Positions 44,417 to 54,862 are shown, numbered from the stretch's first letter. The stretch is DNA of 64,000 bases from Escherichia coli (GCF_030013595.1 NZ_CP122768.1); one strand, 5' to 3'. The notes: generated from the letters alone by a model not told the origin. Numbers and translations: made by a program.

Positions 44417-47266
44417 TTGAAATACCTTGCTTCTTTTCGTACAACCCTGAAAGCCTCGCGCTACATGTTCAGAGCATTGGCGTTAGTGCTCTGGCTGTTG
44501 ATTGCTTTTTCATCCGTTTTTTACATCGTTAATGCGTTACATCAGCGAGAATCGGAAATTCGTCAGGAATTTAATCTGAGTTCCGATCAGGCTCAGCGCT
44601 TTATTCAACGTACCTCTGATGTGATGAAAGAGCTGAAGTACATCGCTGAAAATCGCTTATCGGCAGAAAACGGTGTGCTTTCCCCGCGTGGACGAGAAAC
44701 GCAGGCGGATGTGCCTGCGTTTGAACCGCTGTTTGCCGACTCCGATTGTTCCGCAATGAGTAACACCTGGCGAGGCTCTCTGGAGTCATTGGCGTGGTTT
44801 ATGCGCTACTGGCGCGATAATTTTTCTGCGGCTTACGATCTCAACCGGGTATTTTTAATCGGCAGCGATAACCTCTGCATGGCCAATTTCGGTCTGCGTG
44901 ATATGCCAGTGGAACGCGATACCGCGTTGAAAGCGTTGCATGAACGCATCAATAAATATCGAAATGCACCACAAGATGATAGCGGCAGTAACCTCTACTG
45001 GATCAGCGAAGGTCCGCGCCCTGGCGTCGGGTATTTTTACGCGTTGACGCCAGTTTATCTGGCGAACCGGTTGCAGGCGCTTTTGGGTGTCGAGCAGACC
45101 ATCCGGATGGAGAACTTTTTCTTACCTGGTACGTTGCCGATGGGGGTTACCATTCTTGATGAAAATGGTCATACCCTGATTTCGCTTACCGGACCAGAAA
45201 GCAAAATTAAGGGCGATCCTCGCTGGATGCAGGAACGCTCCTGGTTTGGCTATACGGAAGGGTTCCGGGAGCTGGTGCTGAAGAAAAATCTGCCACCCTC
45301 ATCGCTAAGCATCGTGTATTCGGTGCCGGTTGATAAGGTGCTGGAACGCATTCGCATGTTGATCCTTAACGCAATTTTGCTGAATGTGCTTGCCGGAGCT
45401 GCATTGTTTACTCTCGCGCGGATGTACGAGCGACGTATTTTCATTCCGGCGGAAAGCGACGCCCTGCGACTGGAAGAACATGAGCAGTTTAATCGCAAGA
45501 TTGTCGCCTCCGCGCCAGTGGGTATCTGCATTTTGCGTACCGCTGATGGCGTCAATATTTTAAGTAACGAACTGGCGCATACCTATCTCAATATGCTTAC
45601 GCATGAGGATCGCCAACGACTGACGCAAATTATCTGTGGGCAGCAGGTCAATTTTGTTGATGTCCTGACCAGCAACAATACCAATCTGCAAATCAGCTTC
45701 GTCCATTCGCGCTATCGTAATGAAAACGTGGCCATTTGTGTGCTGGTGGATGTTTCTTCGCGCGTGAAGATGGAAGAGTCGTTGCAGGAGATGGCACAAG
45801 CAGCGGAACAGGCGAGCCAGTCAAAATCGATGTTCCTTGCCACCGTCAGTCATGAGCTGCGAACGCCGCTGTATGGCATTATCGGTAACCTGGATCTGTT
45901 GCAAACCAAAGAGTTACCGAAAGGCGTCGATCGTCTGGTGACGGCAATGAACAACTCTTCCAGCCTGTTGTTGAAAATTATCAGCGATATTCTCGATTTC
46001 TCGAAAATTGAATCAGAACAGTTGAAGATCGAACTGCGTGAGTTTTCACCGCGTGAAGTGATGAACCATATCACCGCCAACTATTTACCGCTGGTGGTAC
46101 GCAAGCAGCTAGGCTTGTACTGCTTTATTGAACCGGATGTGCCAGTGGCCTTAAATGGCGACCCGATGCGTTTACAGCAGGTCATCTCCAACCTGTTGAG
46201 TAACGCCATAAAATTCACCGATACCGGCTGTATAGTTTTGCATGTTCGCGCTGATGGCGATTATCTCTCTATCCGCGTTCGCGATACCGGCGTGGGGATT
46301 CCGGCGAAAGAAGTGGTGCGCTTGTTTGATCCCTTCTTCCAGGTCGGAACGGGCGTACAGCGTAACTTCCAGGGGACCGGTCTGGGGCTGGCGATTTGTG
46401 AAAAACTGATCAGCATGATGGACGGCGACATCTCGGTAGATTCAGAACCGGGAATGGGCAGCCAGTTTACCGTGCGTATTCCGTTGTACGGCGCTCAGTA
46501 CCCGCAGAAAAAAGGCGTGGAAGGGTTGAGTGGTAAACGCTGCTGGCTGGCGGTCCGCAATGCGTCGCTCTGTCAGTTCCTGGAAACCAGTTTGCAGCGC
46601 AGCGGCATCGTCGTTACAACATACGAAGGGCAGGAACCGACTCCCGAAGATGTGTTAATCACTGACGAGGTAGTGAGTAAAAAATGGCAGGGCAGAGCGG
46701 TAGTGACCTTCTGTCGTCGCCATATTGGTATTCCGCTGGAGAAAGCGCCAGGGGAGTGGGTACACAGTGTGGCTGCCCCGCATGAGCTACCGGCATTGTT
46801 GGCGCGTATTTATTTGATCGAGATGGAGAGCGACGATCCTGCTAACGCTCTGCCGTTAACGGACAAAGCGGTCAGCGATAATGACGATATGATGATTCTG
46901 GTCGTGGATGATCATCCGATTAACCGACGTCTGCTGGCAGATCAGTTGGGATCGTTGGGTTATCAATGTAAAACCGCGAATGATGGCGTCGATGCGCTTA
47001 ATGTACTTAGCAAGAATCATATTGATATCGTGCTTAGCGACGTCAACATGCCAAATATGGATGGTTACCGCTTGACGCAACGCATTCGTCAGTTGGGACT
47101 GACGTTGCCGGTAATCGGAGTAACTGCTAATGCGTTGGCTGAAGAGAAGCAGCGGTGTCTGGAGTCCGGTATGGACAGCTGCCTGTCGAAGCCGGTAACG
47201 CTGGATGTGATAAAACAGACGCTAACGGTATATGCCGAGAGGGTCAGGAAATCGCGGGATTCGTAG
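44417..47266 (+). CDS. rcsC: hybrid sensor kinase of the Rcs phosphorelay
   Basis: 949-aa ORF with H-box SHELRTPL and C-terminal receiver domain; the ORF start at 44417 is a TTG. Confidence 0.9.
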   Translation: MKYLASFRTTLKASRYMFRALALVLWLLIAFSSVFYIVNALHQRESEIRQEFNLSSDQAQRFIQRTSDVMKELKYIAENRLSAENGVLSPRGRETQADVPAFEPLFADSDCSAMSNTWRGSLESLAWFMRYWRDNFSAAYDLNRVFLIGSDNLCMANFGLRDMPVERDTALKALHERINKYRNAPQDDSGSNLYWISEGPRPGVGYFYALTPVYLANRLQALLGVEQTIRMENFFLPGTLPMGVTILDENGHTLISLTGPESKIKGDPRWMQERSWFGYTEGFRELVLKKNLPPSSLSIVYSVPVDKVLERIRMLILNAILLNVLAGAALFTLARMYERRIFIPAESDALRLEEHEQFNRKIVASAPVGICILRTADGVNILSNELAHTYLNMLTHEDRQRLTQIICGQQVNFVDVLTSNNTNLQISFVHSRYRNENVAICVLVDVSSRVKMEESLQEMAQAAEQASQSKSMFLATVSHELRTPLYGIIGNLDLLQTKELPKGVDRLVTAMNNSSSLLLKIISDILDFSKIESEQLKIELREFSPREVMNHITANYLPLVVRKQLGLYCFIEPDVPVALNGDPMRLQQVISNLLSNAIKFTDTGCIVLHVRADGDYLSIRVRDTGVGIPAKEVVRLFDPFFQVGTGVQRNFQGTGLGLAICEKLISMMDGDISVDSEPGMGSQFTVRIPLYGAQYPQKKGVEGLSGKRCWLAVRNASLCQFLETSLQRSGIVVTTYEGQEPTPEDVLITDEVVSKKWQGRAVVTFCRRHIGIPLEKAPGEWVHSVAAPHELPALLARIYLIEMESDDPANALPLTDKAVSDNDDMMILVVDDHPINRRLLADQLGSLGYQCKTANDGVDALNVLSKNHIDIVLSDVNMPNMDGYRLTQRIRQLGLTLPVIGVTANALAEEKQRCLESGMDSCLSKPVTLDVIKQTLTVYAERVRKSRDS

Positions 47267-47347
47267 GACGGATAAGGCGTTTACGCCGCATCTGGCATTC
47301 AGTGCAAATGCCAGATGCGACGCTGACGCGTCTTATCTGGCCTACAG
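47266..47347. repeat. REP pair (BIME) between convergent rcsC and rcsB
   Basis: ggacggataaggcgtttacgccgcatctggca and gccagatgcgacgctgacgcgtcttatctggcctac. Confidence 0.8.
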
Positions 47348-47351
47348 ATGA

Positions 47352-48002
47352 TTAGTCTTTATCTGCCGGACTTAAGGTCACAGAAGAGAGATAATTCAGC
47401 AGGGCGATATCGTTCTCGACACCCAGCTTCATCATCGCAGATTTCTTCTGGCTACTGATGGTTTTAATACTGCGGTTCAGCTTTTTAGCGATCTCGGTCA
47501 CCAGGAAGCCTTCCGCAAACAGGCGCAGAACTTCACTCTCTTTTGGCGAGAGACGCTTGTCACCGTAACCACCAGCACTGATTTTTTCCAACAGGCGAGA
47601 AACGCTTTCCGGGGTAAATTTCTTCCCTTTCTGCAGCGCGGCGAGAGCTTTCGGCAGATCGGTCGGTGCACCTTGTTTCAGCACGATCCCTTCGATATCC
47701 AGATCCAATACCGCACTAAGAATCGCCGGGTTGTTGTTCATGGTCAGAACGATGATCGACAGGCTTGGGAAATGGCGCTTGATGTACTTGATTAAGGTAA
47801 TGCCATCGCCGTACTTATCGCCAGGCATGGAGAGATCGGTAATCAACACATGCGCATCCAGTTTCGGCAGGTTGTTGATCAGTGCTGTAGAGTCTTCAAA
47901 TTCGCCGACAACATTCACCCACTCAATTTGCTCAAGTGATTTGCGAATACCGAACAAGACTATCGGATGGTCATCGGCAATAATTACGTTCATATTGTTC
48001 AT
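47352..48002 (-). CDS. rcsB: Rcs response regulator (LuxR/FixJ type)
   Basis: ORF trimmed to the ATG at 48002 (MNNMNVIIADDHPIVLFG..); 216 aa. Confidence 0.92.
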   Translation of the reverse strand: MNNMNVIIADDHPIVLFGIRKSLEQIEWVNVVGEFEDSTALINNLPKLDAHVLITDLSMPGDKYGDGITLIKYIKRHFPSLSIIVLTMNNNPAILSAVLDLDIEGIVLKQGAPTDLPKALAALQKGKKFTPESVSRLLEKISAGGYGDKRLSPKESEVLRLFAEGFLVTEIAKKLNRSIKTISSQKKSAMMKLGVENDIALLNYLSSVTLSPADKD

Positions 48003-48018
48003 GTAATAGGCTACCTTG

Positions 48019-50691
48019 CTACAGCAAGCTCTTGACATAACTGTCAATGTCGCTGATGTATTTTTCTATTCCTGGAACATCCTTTTCACGAATCAGATGT
48101 TCCAGCGTTTCACATAACTGCTTGCCGGGTACCAGATTTAGCATGGCAAACACGCCTTTAAGACGATGAGCCGTTTGGGCTAACGCAGCAAAGTCACTGG
48201 TTGCTGCTTCAGTATACAGCCTCTTAACATCATCCGGTACTGTGTCTACAAAGAGCGCATAATAGCCGCTGGCATGGAGTTGCGCATTTTCATCTCCGCC
48301 CAGAGGCGATTCTGTCACCTCTTCCTGCGCCAGTTGCACTTCAATTAATTGTAAGACCGCTTCCTGCATAGCGTTGCTCATATTGAAGTTGACGCACAAT
48401 TGACCAGGCCCAATTTCCCGTACGCCAGACTCATCATCGCTTAAAAGCAAGCCAGAGGCAGTAAGATTAGACGGATTATCCGTTAAAAAGATATCATAAT
48501 CTTGACTAATTAATCTTTCATCGGGTGTGATACAGGTTGCACCCCAATTTTCTAACTGGCGAGTGACAATATTCCGAATTTCTGCCGAAGTAACATCCAC
48601 CATTACGCAGACATCATCCAGTAATCGCTCTTCTTCCTCTTCAACTTCCGGGTCAGCTGCGAGCATTTTGATATGCACAGAGTAGCGTGTACCAAGCCCA
48701 TCCCGCGTTTTGATGTTTAAATGACCGCCCAGTTTACGCGCCAGTTGATCGCTCAGCCAGAATGCCAGCGGGTCCGCCTTGCCATAGCGATCGTTTTGGG
48801 TCTGGTTGATAAACGGGAAGTGCAAATTATCCATTTCATGAATGCTTACGCCTTCTCCGGTGTCCAGAATGCGGAACGTCAGGCGGTCTTCGGAGGACTC
48901 ATCCTGATCAACCTCAAGGGTGATTTTTCCCAATTGCGTTGAGGTCACGGCATATTGCATCAGTAGCAGCAAAATACGTCGTAAGGCATCGCGATCGCCG
49001 CGGCGCATATCGTGTGCTTTCAGATGATTGTTAATCAGCAGTTGCAGACCTTTACGCTTGATGGCAGGCAACACTGAAGGCACAACTTCATCAATCAAAT
49101 CCTGCACGGAGAACAGCACCGTCTCACTTTTCCAGCTATCGTCCGCAAGCATGTTCGCTAACTGTATTTCATCGACCAGCCGCACCAGCACATCAGCCTG
49201 ATTCGCCAGTTGTTTGCTTTCCGGGGCGTTGAGTTTAGCCGCGCTCTCCGCCAGGGACTGTGCGGGTTCTTTCAGCGCATCGCCAATGTTTTTCATAAAG
49301 GTCATCCGCCCCTGCTGGTTTTTCTCATACAGACGCTGCGCCTGCTTGAGTTTCTTGTTTACCAGCACTTCGCGATCCTGATCGCGAATAATGAAAATTT
49401 GTGTGCGCGGCGCGACCTGGCTGCGGAACATGCGGATCTCATACAGCTCGTTATTGATCGTCGCCTGAATAATCCCCTGATGCTGTTCCGCCATGGTGGT
49501 GATGTTTTGCAGATTCAAATGCGGCAGCAAATGATCGGCAATTTTGTTACTTATGACAGTGCGGTTCGATTCCTGATCGTGAACCAGCAGGCCGAGCGGC
49601 AGCAGTGAGACTATCTCTTCATTGATTGCCCGTAAAATGCGCAATTCGTTATTGACCGCCGTGTTGGGTAGACTTTCTGTACTGCGACTGGAGAAATGGC
49701 GGAATGTGGTATAGCCAAATAACGCCAGCGCCAGCAAACCGATGTTCAGCAGCAGTGGCAGCAGAATGTTTTGCAACGTATCTAGCAATAAGGTGCCATA
49801 AGGAACCTGCCAGACCAGGCGCATATCGGTAGAGTTGAGTGCCGAGGAGATTTCAATCTTCGTACTGTTAAAGTGGATACTGACGCTATCCGTCCCTTCT
49901 TTCTCATTATCATTGTTTCCCGTTGCCGTCGCGTCTGGCTCAAGGCGGAAACTGTCCAGCGGCATACCCGGTGGGATCAAATCATTAATCGGCAGATCAA
50001 AAGCCACGACCGTTGCCAGATGTCCTGGCTGGTTAAAGGTAGTACGCAAGGTAAAGTAATGACCGTTCTGCCAGGCCAGGCGGCGCATGTTAGAAAAGCT
50101 TTCGCGTTCATCGAGGGCGTTGGCCTGTTGCAACATCTCTGCACGACGTGAATCAACAATGTCGCTGACGGTCGATTCTTTAAATCCGGAGGTGAGATCT
50201 TTGAGGGGCAGGGTTGAGATCAGCACCAGACTGTTATCCTGACCATTCAGGTAATACATCGACCATGGTACATTTTCTGCGCCCCACAACGTGTCAAGAT
50301 AAGTGGACATCCGTTGAGTCATCTCAAGCGTTGAGTTGTCGTGAGAGCCAAAGATTAACGCTTCCGTTTTGCGACGAGGTTTTTCCAGATAGTAGACATC
50401 CTGTTTCAGGCGCGTCTCTTGTAAACCTTCGCCGGAGGAGGGGGAGGTCGTCGCGGCAATGTTGTCGTAGATCTGCCAGGTCACGTAACGCCAGGTATCG
50501 ACGCGCTTTTGGATAGCGTGGGTAATGTCGACAATCTGGTAACTTTTATCTTTCAGCCAGGCGTTAACGGCGCTTTGTACCATTACCCCCATCGTCACCA
50601 GTAACACAATGATCAACAGTAAAAAGAAGCGGGTAATGCTCCCCGGTAGGAGTGAAAAGCGGGTCGTGGCCGTTGTCTCTTTCTGACGCAT
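48019..50691 (-). CDS. rcsD: Rcs phosphotransfer protein (Hpt)
   Basis: 890-aa ORF with N-terminal membrane anchor and C-terminal Hpt region. Confidence 0.9.
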   Translation of the reverse strand: MRQKETTATTRFSLLPGSITRFFLLLIIVLLVTMGVMVQSAVNAWLKDKSYQIVDITHAIQKRVDTWRYVTWQIYDNIAATTSPSSGEGLQETRLKQDVYYLEKPRRKTEALIFGSHDNSTLEMTQRMSTYLDTLWGAENVPWSMYYLNGQDNSLVLISTLPLKDLTSGFKESTVSDIVDSRRAEMLQQANALDERESFSNMRRLAWQNGHYFTLRTTFNQPGHLATVVAFDLPINDLIPPGMPLDSFRLEPDATATGNNDNEKEGTDSVSIHFNSTKIEISSALNSTDMRLVWQVPYGTLLLDTLQNILLPLLLNIGLLALALFGYTTFRHFSSRSTESLPNTAVNNELRILRAINEEIVSLLPLGLLVHDQESNRTVISNKIADHLLPHLNLQNITTMAEQHQGIIQATINNELYEIRMFRSQVAPRTQIFIIRDQDREVLVNKKLKQAQRLYEKNQQGRMTFMKNIGDALKEPAQSLAESAAKLNAPESKQLANQADVLVRLVDEIQLANMLADDSWKSETVLFSVQDLIDEVVPSVLPAIKRKGLQLLINNHLKAHDMRRGDRDALRRILLLLMQYAVTSTQLGKITLEVDQDESSEDRLTFRILDTGEGVSIHEMDNLHFPFINQTQNDRYGKADPLAFWLSDQLARKLGGHLNIKTRDGLGTRYSVHIKMLAADPEVEEEEERLLDDVCVMVDVTSAEIRNIVTRQLENWGATCITPDERLISQDYDIFLTDNPSNLTASGLLLSDDESGVREIGPGQLCVNFNMSNAMQEAVLQLIEVQLAQEEVTESPLGGDENAQLHASGYYALFVDTVPDDVKRLYTEAATSDFAALAQTAHRLKGVFAMLNLVPGKQLCETLEHLIREKDVPGIEKYISDIDSYVKSLL

Positions 50692-51002
50692 TCGTGTTTA
50701 TGACCTGTTAAAACTTCGCGAAGTGATAGGGCAGTATAAAGGGTACAGTGTGAAATTCCAGACTCTTACCTGATTGATGATTCTCTATTCTCCCGTGATA
50801 TTTATCATCCTGCATTGGGGAAAATAGATGTACAAGCGCCATTTTGCTGTACAAATAACCTACAAAAAGCCCAACGAAATTAATTGCAAATAAACGAAGA
50901 TTGCTGGAAATTATGCTGATGTTAATTGTTTGTGAAATAGTTAACAAGCGTTATAGTTTTTCTGTGGTAGCACAGAATAATGAAAAGTGTGTAAAGAAGG
51001 GT

Positions 51003-51095
51003 AAAAAAAACCGGATGCGAAGCATCCGGTTGAAATAGGGGTAAACAGACATTCAGAAATGAATGACGGTAATAAATAAAGTTAATGATGATAGC
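51003..51095 (-). ncRNA. micF: MicF antisense sRNA, divergent from ompC
   Basis: Minus strand reads GCTATCATCATTAACTTTATTTATTACCGTCATTCATTTCTGAATGTCTGTTTACCCCTATTTCAACCGGATGC..GCATCCGGTTTTTTTT with a terminal hairpin and T-run. Confidence 0.85.
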
Positions 51096-51259
51096 GGGAG
51101 TTATTCTAGTTGCGAGTGAAGGTTTTGTTTTGACATTCAGTGCTGTCAAATACTTAAGAATAAGTTATTGATTTTAACCTTGAATTATTATTGCTTGATG
51201 TTAGGTGCTTATTTCGCCATTCCGCAACAATCTTAAAAAGTTCCCTTCTATTTACATTT

Positions 51260-51290
51260 TGAAACATCTATAGCGATAAATGAAACATCT
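51260..51290 (+). promoter_or_regulatory. OmpR-binding region of the ompC promoter (TGAAACATCT direct repeats)
   Basis: The 10-mer TGAAACATCT occurs twice (51260..51269 and 51281..51290) about 140 nt upstream of the ompC ATG. Confidence 0.55.
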
Positions 51291-51414
51291 TAAAAGTTTT
51301 AGTATCATATTCGTGTTGGATTATTCTGCATTTTTGGGGAGAATGGACTTGCCGACTGATTAATGAGGGTTAATCAGTATGCAGTGGCATAAAAAAGCAA
51401 ATAAAGGCATATAA

Positions 51415-52557
<1,143 letters not shown>

Positions 52558-52576
52558 TCTCGATGGATATCGAACA

Positions 52577-52598
52577 AAGGGCCTGCGGGCCCTTTTTT
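52577..52598 (+). terminator. rho-independent terminator of ompC
   Basis: AGGGCC-tgcg-GGCCCT hairpin followed by TTTTTT. Confidence 0.8.
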
Positions 52599-52668
52599 CA
52601 TTGTTTTCAGCGTACAAACACAGTTTTTTGGTGTACTCTTGCGACCGTTCGCATGAGGATAATCACGT

Positions 52669-53724
52669 ATGGAAATAAGCTTTACCCGCGTGGCACTGCT
52701 GGCTGCCGCGCTCTTCTTTGTTGGTTGCGATCAAAAACCACAACCCGCCAAAACCCACGCTACTGAAGTTACCGTCCTTGAAGGCAAAACTATGGGTACC
52801 TTCTGGCGTGCCAGCATTCCGGGCATTGACGCCAAACGCAGTGCCGAACTTAAAGAAAAGATTCAAACCCAGCTGGACGCCGACGATCAGCTGCTTTCGA
52901 CCTATAAAAAAGATTCCGCGCTGATGCGATTTAACGACTCGCAAAGTTTATCGCCGTGGCCGGTAAGTGAAGCGATGGCCGATATCGTCACTACCTCGCT
53001 ACGCATTGGCGCGAAGACCGATGGCGCGATGGATATAACCGTCGGGCCGCTGGTGAATCTGTGGGGTTTCGGTCCGGAACAACAGCCGGTTCAAATTCCG
53101 AGCCAGGAACAGATCGATGCGATGAAAGCCAAAACCGGCTTACAGCACCTGACGGTGATTAATCAGTCCCACCAGCAATATCTGCAAAAAGACCTGCCGG
53201 ATTTATATGTCGATCTCTCTACCGTCGGTGAAGGTTATGCGGCGGATCACCTGGCACGCTTGATGGAGCAGGAAGGGATTTCCCGCTATCTGGTGTCGGT
53301 GGGCGGCGCGCTGAACAGCCGTGGTATGAACGGTGCAGGCCAGCCGTGGCGGGTAGCGATTCAAAAACCAACCGCTCAGGAAAATGCGGTTCAGGCGGTG
53401 GTGGATATCAACGGTCATGGCATTAGCACCTCTGGCAGCTACCGTAACTATTACGAACTGGACGGCAAACGTCTTTCCCATGTTATCGATCCGCAAACCG
53501 GGCGTCCCATCGAACACAATCTGGTATCCGTGACGGTGATTGCTCCGACGGCGCTGGAAGCCGATGCCTGGGATACTGGCTTGATGGTACTCGGGCCGGA
53601 GAAAGCCAAAGAGGTTGTTCGCCGGGAAGGGCTGGCGGTTTATATGATCACCAAAGAAGACGATAGCTTTAAAACCTGGATGTCACCACAGTTTAAAAGC
53701 TTCCTTGTCAGCGAAAAAAATTAA
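52669..53724 (+). CDS. apbE: FAD:protein FMN transferase lipoprotein
   Basis: 351-aa ORF with lipobox FFVGC; GAGGA upstream of the ATG. Confidence 0.9.
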   Translation: MEISFTRVALLAAALFFVGCDQKPQPAKTHATEVTVLEGKTMGTFWRASIPGIDAKRSAELKEKIQTQLDADDQLLSTYKKDSALMRFNDSQSLSPWPVSEAMADIVTTSLRIGAKTDGAMDITVGPLVNLWGFGPEQQPVQIPSQEQIDAMKAKTGLQHLTVINQSHQQYLQKDLPDLYVDLSTVGEGYAADHLARLMEQEGISRYLVSVGGALNSRGMNGAGQPWRVAIQKPTAQENAVQAVVDINGHGISTSGSYRNYYELDGKRLSHVIDPQTGRPIEHNLVSVTVIAPTALEADAWDTGLMVLGPEKAKEVVRREGLAVYMITKEDDSFKTWMSPQFKSFLVSEKN

Positions 53725-53731
53725 AGCGCAA
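53719..53731 (+). promoter_or_regulatory. Ada box (AAT-N6-GCAA / AAAGCGCA) upstream of ada
   Basis: aattaaagcgcaa lies about 70 nt upstream of the ada ATG and overlaps the apbE stop. Confidence 0.5.
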
Positions 53732-53797
53732 GATTGTTGGTTTTTGCGTGATGGTGACCGGGCAGACTAAAGGCTATCCTTAACCAAGGAGCTGATT

Positions 53798-54862
53798 ATG
53801 AAAAACGCCACATGCTTAACTGACGATCAACGCTGGCAATCTGTCTTAGCCCGCGACCCGAATGCCGACGGCGAATTCGTTTTCGCCGTGCGCACCACGG
53901 GTATCTTTTGCCGTCCGTCTTGCCGCGCCAGACATGCCTTGCGGGAAAATGTCTCCTTCTACGCAAATGCCAGCGAGGCACTCGCCGCCGGATTTCGCCC
54001 CTGCAAACGTTGTCAGCCAGACAAAGCCAATCCCCGGCAACATCGCCTTGATAAAATTACCCACGCCTGCCGACTGCTGGAACAGGAAACGCCTGTAACG
54101 CTGGAGGCCTTAGCCGATCAGGTGGCGATGAGTCCGTTCCATCTGCATCGATTGTTTAAAGCCACCACCGGGATGACACCGAAAGCCTGGCAACAGGCCT
54201 GGCGCGCTCGCCGTTTGCGCGAGTCGTTAGCGAAAGGGGAGAGCGTGACTACATCTATTCTTAACGCCGGATTCCCCGACAGCAGCAGTTACTACCGCAA
54301 AGCCGACGAAACGCTGGGCATGACGGCTAAACAATTCCGTCACGGTGGCGAAAATCTGGCGGTGCGTTACGCGCTGGCTGATTGTGAGCTGGGCCGTTGC
54401 CTGGTGGCAGAAAGCGAGCGGGGGATTTGCGCGATATTGCTGGGCGATGATGACGCGACACTAATCAGCGAGTTGCAGCAGATGTTTCCCGCTGCCGACA
54501 AAGCGCCTGCCGATCTGACGTTTCAGCAACATGTGCGTGAAGTGATCGCCAGCCTCAATCAACGCGATACGCCGCTGACGTTACCGCTGGATATTCGCGG
54601 CACTGCTTTTCAGCAACAAGTCTGGCAGGCACTGCGCACGATACCTTGTGGTGAAACCGTCAGTTATCAGCAACTGGCGAACGCCATCGGCAAACCGAAA
54701 GCGGTACGTGCCGTTGCCAGCGCCTGTGCCGCCAACAAGCTGGCTATCATAATACCCTGTCATCGGGTGGTCCGTGGTGATGGCACACTTTCCGGTTACC
54801 GCTGGGGCGTGTCGCGCAAAGCGCAACTGCTGCGCCGCGAAGTTGAAAATGAGGAGAGGTAA
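53798..54862 (+). CDS. ada: bifunctional Ada regulator / O6-methylguanine-DNA methyltransferase
   Basis: 354-aa ORF: N-terminal Cys cluster (CRPSCRARH..C..C), C-terminal active site PCHRV. Confidence 0.93.
   Translation: MKNATCLTDDQRWQSVLARDPNADGEFVFAVRTTGIFCRPSCRARHALRENVSFYANASEALAAGFRPCKRCQPDKANPRQHRLDKITHACRLLEQETPVTLEALADQVAMSPFHLHRLFKATTGMTPKAWQQAWRARRLRESLAKGESVTTSILNAGFPDSSSYYRKADETLGMTAKQFRHGGENLAVRYALADCELGRCLVAESERGICAILLGDDDATLISELQQMFPAADKAPADLTFQQHVREVIASLNQRDTPLTLPLDIRGTAFQQQVWQALRTIPCGETVSYQQLANAIGKPKAVRAVASACAANKLAIIIPCHRVVRGDGTLSGYRWGVSRKAQLLRREVENEER

Follow-up and report, generated by a model that had tools for sequence, protein, structure and literature searches.

A canonical micF-ompC regulatory locus in an Escherichia coli chromosomal stretch, with a CpxR-type direct repeat at the micF 3' end

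The DNA analyzed here, a stretch of 64,000 nucleotides from Escherichia coli (GCF_030013595.1, NZ_CP122768.1; hereafter the window), carries the canonical and already known E. coli micF-ompC regulatory locus. We give this reading a probability of about 0.97, and none of the observations contradicted it. Regulation by trans-acting antisense RNA and reciprocal porin control through OmpR both have their founding example in this locus, and the copy described here does not depart from the textbook description. Shown in this work are the identity of the locus, its coordinates and strand, its structure and target complementarity, and its synteny and conservation; binding of proteins, dependence on Hfq, and the logic of the osmotic response are taken from the literature. 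The features of the locus are listed in Table 1.

Identification of micF in the rcsD-ompC spacer

A search with the Rfam covariance models (cmscan) matched the MicF family RF00033 at positions 51003..51096 of the minus strand, with a score of 118.7 bits against a gathering threshold of 79 and an E value of 3.7e-19. The match covers model positions 1 to 94 of 94 and is not truncated. It was the sole above-threshold MicF match, both when positions 48000-54000 were searched and when the search was extended to the whole 64-kb window, and no other porin sRNA family was matched by the Rfam covariance models in the 64 kb. Furthermore, in an alignment of the rcsD-ompC spacers, K-12 micF (b4439; NC_000913.3 2313084..2313176) mapped exactly to the interval and strand given for the gene in Table 1. 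The spacer is 738 bp long in both chromosomes and shows 12 substitutions and no gaps; within micF, 91 of the 93 bases are identical. The sequence is a member of RF00033 by every feature that could be tested.

A sequence-only reading of the window had placed a 93-nt micF-like sequence, ending in a hairpin and a T-run, on the minus strand at 51003..51095, in the spacer between rcsD and ompC and divergent from the latter. The two checks that it had proposed, a covariance-model search and an alignment to K-12 micF, were run: the MicF model matched, and the alignment agreed with the predicted coordinates base for base. A terminator scan recovered the 3' hairpin (10-bp stem, 3-nt loop) and a run of 8 T, and profile searches identified the flanking open reading frames (ORFs) as RcsD on the minus strand and OmpC on the plus strand. 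The low interest and the label of positive control that this reading had assigned are fitting, since the locus is already known. Its value is that of a calibration point, at which coordinates, strand, and orientation were right to the base for the 93-nt RNA gene and for the 10-bp repeat described below.

The spacer was found in 5376 of 5426 complete E. coli genomes. PGAP records have no feature annotated beneath the micF match. Because micF is unannotated in the RefSeq PGAP records, annotation-based scans will miss it.

Table 1. Features of the micF-ompC locus in the window. Mean conservation was calculated per block on 111 distinct control regions (among the matches listed)
Feature	Coordinates	Strand	Mean conservation	Evidence or remarks
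rcsD, downstream of micF on the same strand	48019..50691	-		NCBIfam NF007907 RcsD, 1569.9 bits
micF gene (93-nt MicF sRNA)	51003..51095	-	0.93	Rfam RF00033 and alignment to K-12 b4439; nt 1-28 fixed by the search pattern
MicF Rho-independent terminator	51003..51031 (stem 51009-51031 plus U-run)	-		Terminator scan
MicF stem-loop 1, RNA nt 31-46	51050..51065	-		MFE fold and Rfam consensus
MicF nt 1-32, unpaired 5' antisense (seed) region	51064..51095	-		Rfam consensus, MFE fold
Putative micF -10 hexamer, TAGAAT	51103..51108	-		Read from sequence, 7 nt upstream of +1
Candidate mar/sox/rob box	51128..51146	-	0.85	18/19 match to AYNGCACNNWNNRYYAAAY
Spacer between candidate marbox and C1	51147-51249		0.52
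OmpR site C1	51251..51270	+	0.87	Half-sites TTTACAT (51251) and GAAACAT (51261); repeat copy 1 inside
Repeat copy 1, TGAAACATCT	51260-51269	+	0.90
OmpR site C2	51272..51291	+	0.77	Half-site GAAACAT (51282); repeat copy 2 inside; identical to K-12
Repeat copy 2, TGAAACATCT	51281-51290	+	0.95	Distal half of C2 weakly conserved
OmpR site C3, abuts ompC -35	51293..51312	+	0.92	Diverged half-site GTATCAT (51302); identical to K-12
Putative ompC core promoter	51316..51344	+	0.83	-35 TTGGAT (51316-21), 17-bp spacer, -10 GAGAAT (51339-44)
ompC, 375-aa allele	51430..52557	+		NCBIfam NF007841 porin OmpC, 759.6 bits

Fold of MicF and differences from K-12

The minimum free energy (MFE) of the 93-nt RNA is -21.4 kcal/mol (z = -6.25), and none of 200 shuffled sequences was equally stable. 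In the Rfam consensus, nucleotides 1-32 are free of pairing, and in the MFE fold most of them are; their sequence is that of K-12. They are followed by stem-loop 1, and the RNA ends in the Rho-independent terminator, in which 6 of the 10 stem pairs are G-C.

For comparison across species, at least 120 Enterobacteriaceae loci from species-representative genomes of many genera were collected by scanning with a MicF 5' pattern. MicF nt 1-28 are fixed by this pattern, so their conservation across species is circular. When the structure was imposed on 101 distinct homologs (among the matches listed), 98.2% of the cells were paired, compared to 17-37% in slid controls. Seven pairs showed double-sided compensatory changes in these homologs, six of them in the terminator, in which 6 of 10 pairs thus covary across genera. 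In stem-loop 1, 99.7% of the cells were paired in the same 101 listed homologs; five of its six pairs were invariant and one had a double-sided change. Being nearly invariant, stem-loop 1 provides no covariation evidence.

These data also bear on the idea that positions 50922..51149 of the minus strand hold a small protein gene, instead of or besides a noncoding RNA. The ORF listing does contain a 75-aa ORF with a TTG start that runs across micF and, directly downstream of the gene, another one of 79 aa. Neither of them, however, has an above-threshold Pfam match, and no CDS is annotated here in the curated K-12 record or in the PGAP record. Moreover, the 75-aa ORF would traverse the micF promoter, the entire RNA, and the terminator. 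Conservation is RNA-like, with stems maintained by compensatory changes, and among the homologs, the MicF linker and the terminator loop vary by small indels, which would break a reading frame. For lack of a family match and of annotation, and because of its extension over promoter, RNA, and terminator, the coding interpretation was rejected; we consider it almost certainly wrong.

Relative to K-12 micF, the length of 93 nt, the position, the strand relationship, and the flanking genes are all alike, and no base differs in the 5' antisense region, in stem-loop 1, in the putative -10 hexamer, or in the candidate marbox. The two substitutions within the gene lie at nt 75 (window position 51021, terminator loop), which is U here and C in K-12, and at nt 82 (window position 51014, terminator stem), which is C here and U in K-12. 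By the latter change, a G.U pair of K-12 becomes a G-C pair, and the calculated stability of the terminator hairpin is -15.8 kcal/mol instead of the -12.9 kcal/mol of K-12, a gain of 2.9.

Two substitutions in 93 nt could be taken as a sign of a decaying or nonfunctional micF variant. Yet both fall into the terminator hairpin, one as a loop base and the other as a strengthening of the stem, and at both positions the window agrees with the Rfam consensus. G-C is also the commonest state of the pair containing nt 82 across genera (GC 51, AU 32, GU 18, among the matches listed). The seed, the -10 hexamer, and the marbox are those of K-12. Since both substitutions are neutral or stabilizing, we rejected decay, to which we attach hardly any probability. 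No functional difference from K-12 MicF is to be expected from the sequence.

Pairing of the MicF 5' end with the ompF leader

The gene for the target, ompF, lies outside the window, and therefore the K-12 ompF leader was used, which is at least 99% identical in 5074 of 5426 E. coli genomes. MicF nt 1-32 were predicted to pair with ompF positions -16 to +11, which include the Shine-Dalgarno sequence and the AUG, by 24 base pairs and with an energy of -26.0 kcal/mol. This energy was matched by none of 2000 dinucleotide shuffles and by none of 48 mock translation-initiation regions taken from the window. The longest contiguous pairing, 12 bp, was marginal, as 48 of the 2000 shuffles had one at least as long.

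The positive result depends on restricting MicF to nt 1-32, which are independently predicted to be unpaired. With full-length MicF, the calculation failed to discriminate: z was -1.4 for the duplex with ompF, 92 of 1000 shuffles did equally well, and the score was -42.2 with the ompC leader compared to -40.8 with the ompF leader. The full-length calculation disregards intramolecular structure and permits huge loops between AT-rich RNAs. The predicted duplex of nt 1-32 with ompF is the classical MicF-ompF interaction.

In the literature, MicF is expressed as an RNA of approximately 93 nt that binds Hfq and lowers OmpF (PMC12152304, PMC9988348, 10.1101/2024.08.26.609649). Its conserved 5' end acts as the seed in an Hfq-dependent manner, with lrp, cpxR, phoE, and oppA as further targets (PMC12152304, PMC9988348). 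In the corresponding mechanism, the 5' part of the RNA (approximately 32 nt) would pair, dependent on Hfq, with ompF mRNA around the Shine-Dalgarno sequence and the AUG, block translation, and thereby lower OmpF. MicC (target ompC) and MicA (target ompA) share this mechanism class, in which an unpaired 5' seed pairs with a porin translation-initiation region, and in them, too, a Rho-independent terminator ending in a U-tail comes after the seed. They are, however, separate families with other sequences and loci.

The micF promoter and a candidate marbox

The position of micF +1 was taken from the K-12 annotation. Upstream of it, the putative -10 hexamer fits a TAnAAT pattern that is conserved to at least 0.9 in five of six columns across genera (among the matches listed). 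A simple sigma-70 scan missed the promoters of both micF and ompC, with 2 matches in total compared to 3.6 in shuffled sequences. For micF, this is consistent with an activator-dependent promoter with a poor -35 region; for such promoters the scan is uninformative.

The candidate mar/sox/rob box spans positions -51 to -33 from micF +1 and thus overlaps the -35 region. The 20-bp marbox consensus is degenerate, with 4 matches in the window where 1.14 are expected, and the match is insignificant by itself. Its mean conservation is 0.85, compared to 0.52 over the next 100 bp (among the matches listed). Control of micFp by MarA, SoxS, and Rob is documented (bioRxiv 10.1101/2024.08.26.609649). From micF as far as 51227, the control region is identical to that of K-12.

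Beyond the candidate marbox, AATCAATAACTTA at 51161-51173 of the minus strand fits the IHF consensus WATCAANNNNTTR and lies within an island of moderate conservation in the micF-ompC spacer. This consensus has 2 matches in the window where 2.37 are expected, so the fit is insignificant alone. Action of IHF at ompC is known from older literature.

Tandem OmpR sites and the ompC promoter

The sequence-only reading had also noted a direct repeat upstream of ompC, at 51260..51290. Indeed, TGAAACATCT occurs exactly twice in the 64 kb, on the plus strand and 21 bp apart from start to start, and both copies sit in this interval. By chance 0.12 copies are expected, and none of 100 shuffled sequences contained two or more.

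The ompC strand carries four OmpR-like heptamers here (51251, 51261, 51282, and 51302), a density far above the 0.92 per kb of the window. The C3 heptamer follows the C2 heptamer by 20 bp, and C3 ends 3 bp before the TTGGAT of the -35 region. The exact 20-bp boundaries of C1, C2, and C3 in Table 1 are what we take to be those of Harlocker 1995 and Yoshida 2006. Placed by the sequence and these boundaries, the TGAAACATCT copies make up those 10-bp halves of C1 and C2 that are nearer to the promoter. The two 10-mers are, judged by this placement, part of an OmpR element with three tandem sites in all. Tandem sites of approximately 20 bp with two half-sites each have been described as C1-C2-C3 (PMC3050692). 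That architecture (sites of approximately 20 bp, 10-bp half-sites with an ACAT-type core, the last site ending beside the -35 region) is present in the window.

Published material on single sites fits this placement. Positions 51242-51277 correspond to an oligonucleotide with the K-12 sequence that served in experiments as the C1 site for OmpR in the ompC promoter (PMC2586830). The two mismatches, at 51248-49, are both in the 5' flank of the oligonucleotide. The OmpR consensus from ChIP-exo, GTTACATTTTGTTACAT, has its only match in the window at 51251-51267, which is insignificant alone; micF is listed in the OmpR regulon by the same study (PMC5438342). The micF-ompC linkage region has been described as 253 bp long, with OmpR sites that serve both genes (PMC1489923).

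From 51250 to the ompC ATG, the upstream region shows no difference from K-12; this part holds the two TGAAACATCT copies, the C3 half-site, and the putative core promoter. Upstream of C1, three substitutions were found, namely, C at 51228 (T in K-12) and CT at 51248-49 (GC in K-12). At least one of the two columns 51248-49 is poorly conserved across genera (among the matches listed), and we expect the effect of the three changes on OmpR binding to be negligible. In the putative core promoter, all six columns of TTGGAT are conserved to at least 0.97, and the pattern nAnAAT is kept in the -10 hexamer (among the matches listed). The implied ompC transcription start, approximately 51349-51352, agrees with the 253-bp interval (PMC1489923).

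It could be argued that the repeat is a chance or historical duplication devoid of a regulatory role, or that it serves ompC only and not micF. Exact copies of the 10-mer are not universal: among the 111 distinct regions (of the matches listed), 29 have two, 56 have one, and 26 have none. The repeat centers are 170-190 bp from micF +1, which is far for a classical activator, and the connection between the repeat and micF comes from the literature only. Against this stand the excess of copies over chance and their conservation, which reaches 0.90 and 0.95 in the repeat columns compared to 0.52 in the nearby spacer (among the matches listed). Furthermore, copy 1 lies inside the experimentally used C1 site (PMC2586830), the sites are reported to serve both micF and ompC (PMC1489923), and micF belongs to the ChIP-exo regulon of OmpR (PMC5438342). 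Based on conservation and the published C1 site, we rejected a repeat without function, and we regard the alternative as a whole as very unlikely, although the sites may still serve ompC only.

Binding of OmpR~P and osmotic activation of ompC (and micF) are known from the literature (PMC3050692, PMC1489923, PMC5438342, PMC2586830). Together with the element described above, this suggests a model in which the approximately 250 bp between the micF and ompC transcription starts would act as a shared control region. On the micF side, the putative marbox would overlap the -35 region; on the ompC side, the tandem OmpR~P sites C1-C2-C3 (approximately 51251-51312) would abut the -35 region. Because the repeat copies are two helical turns apart, we propose that dimers of OmpR~P stack along a single face of the helix. 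When osmolarity is high, OmpR~P would occupy C1 to C3 and activate ompC and, according to the literature, micF. OmpC would then rise, and OmpF would be repressed both transcriptionally and posttranscriptionally.

Immediately 5' of C1, AAAAGTTCCCTT at 51236-51247 of the plus strand is a strongly conserved block (among the matches listed). The hexamer GTTCCC is exact in 80 of 112 loci among the matches listed and usually lies 11 bp before the first OmpR half-site. A CpxR-like reading of positions 51241-51255 on the minus strand (GTAAA-N5-GKRAA or GTAAA-N5-GGGAA) was given no weight, as the pattern had been fitted post hoc and is circular.

A CpxR-type box at the micF 3' end

One element of the locus had not been raised by the sequence-only reading. 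Positions 50991-51005 of the plus strand, which correspond to K-12 2313174-2313188, read GTAAA-GAAGG-GTAAA, a perfect direct repeat of the CpxR type (GTAAA-N5-GTAAA). The box overlaps the last three T of the T-run of the micF terminator. It was found at the same offset in 102 of 118 Enterobacteriaceae species loci, and the motif had one other occurrence in the 2.04 Mb of these loci (among the matches listed). In an anchored profile, conservation was at least 0.9 over TTTAC..TTCTTTAC (micF sense) and then 0.4-0.7 (among the matches listed).

In the literature searched, to which De Wulf 2002 and Batchelor 2005, reportedly assigning a CpxR site to ompC, did not belong, we found no description of a CpxR-type box at the micF/ompC locus. 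An identical 15-mer at another gene was bound by CpxR in an electrophoretic mobility shift assay in Lonsdalea populi (PMC11568244). Judged by motif and conservation, the box at 50991-51005 might be a functional site, undescribed here, for CpxR~P or another regulator of the OmpR family, a tentative proposal that is more probably wrong than right by a clear distance. Just as well, the box could be the site for CpxR that earlier papers assigned to ompC, or simply a -35-like element (TTTACA) of an rcsD promoter.

As MicF represses cpxR mRNA (PMC9988348), a functional CpxR site could close a feedback loop between Cpx and MicF. If functional, the box could instead couple Cpx envelope stress to transcription of rcsD or ompC; the RcsD protein level was reported to be unchanged on Cpx activation (PMC4985592). 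The box is the only item of the locus with forward value, and through it Cpx could become a further input to this intensively studied node.

Flanking genes and synteny

Beyond RcsD lies RcsB, and beyond OmpC lies ApbE, which is the gene order of K-12 in the opposite orientation. The closest complete genome, that of a pig isolate, has the same gene order and a spacer that is 99.9% identical. We conclude that the window is ordinary E. coli chromosome, reversed relative to the K-12 numbering.

The arrangement is retained across species. An ompC-like gene is divergent from micF, at 321-344 bp from micF +1, in all 108 loci with enough flanking sequence, and rcsD comes after micF in 103 of 103 loci (among the matches listed in both cases). 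The micF-ompC distance is tight across genera (321-344 bp), whereas the micF-rcsD distance is wide (305-551 bp; among the matches listed).

The OmpC of the window has 375 aa and is 92% identical to the 367-aa K-12 OmpC, with a promoter and a leader identical to those of K-12. The differences are concentrated in three indel patches (approximately residues 176-184, 228-236, and 311-314), which presumably are surface loops showing the usual OmpC antigenic variation between E. coli lineages.

A match to the sR32 snoRNA inside rcsD (50218-50278) scored 18.9 bits against a threshold of 40 and was dismissed as chance. The mechanically called rcsB ORF at 47352-48047 of the minus strand has a TTG start and 231 aa. 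The RcsB profile begins at residue 16 of this ORF, and the closest genome annotates rcsB as 651 nt (216 aa), so that the real rcsB start is the ATG at 48002. Finally, Rfam matched naRNA4 (CssrE, nucleoid-associated RNA) at 47266-47342 of the plus strand, with 73.8 bits against a gathering threshold of 59.5. This match, which we take to be a REP-type element, sits where the 3' ends of rcsC and rcsB converge, in the short interval between the two genes.
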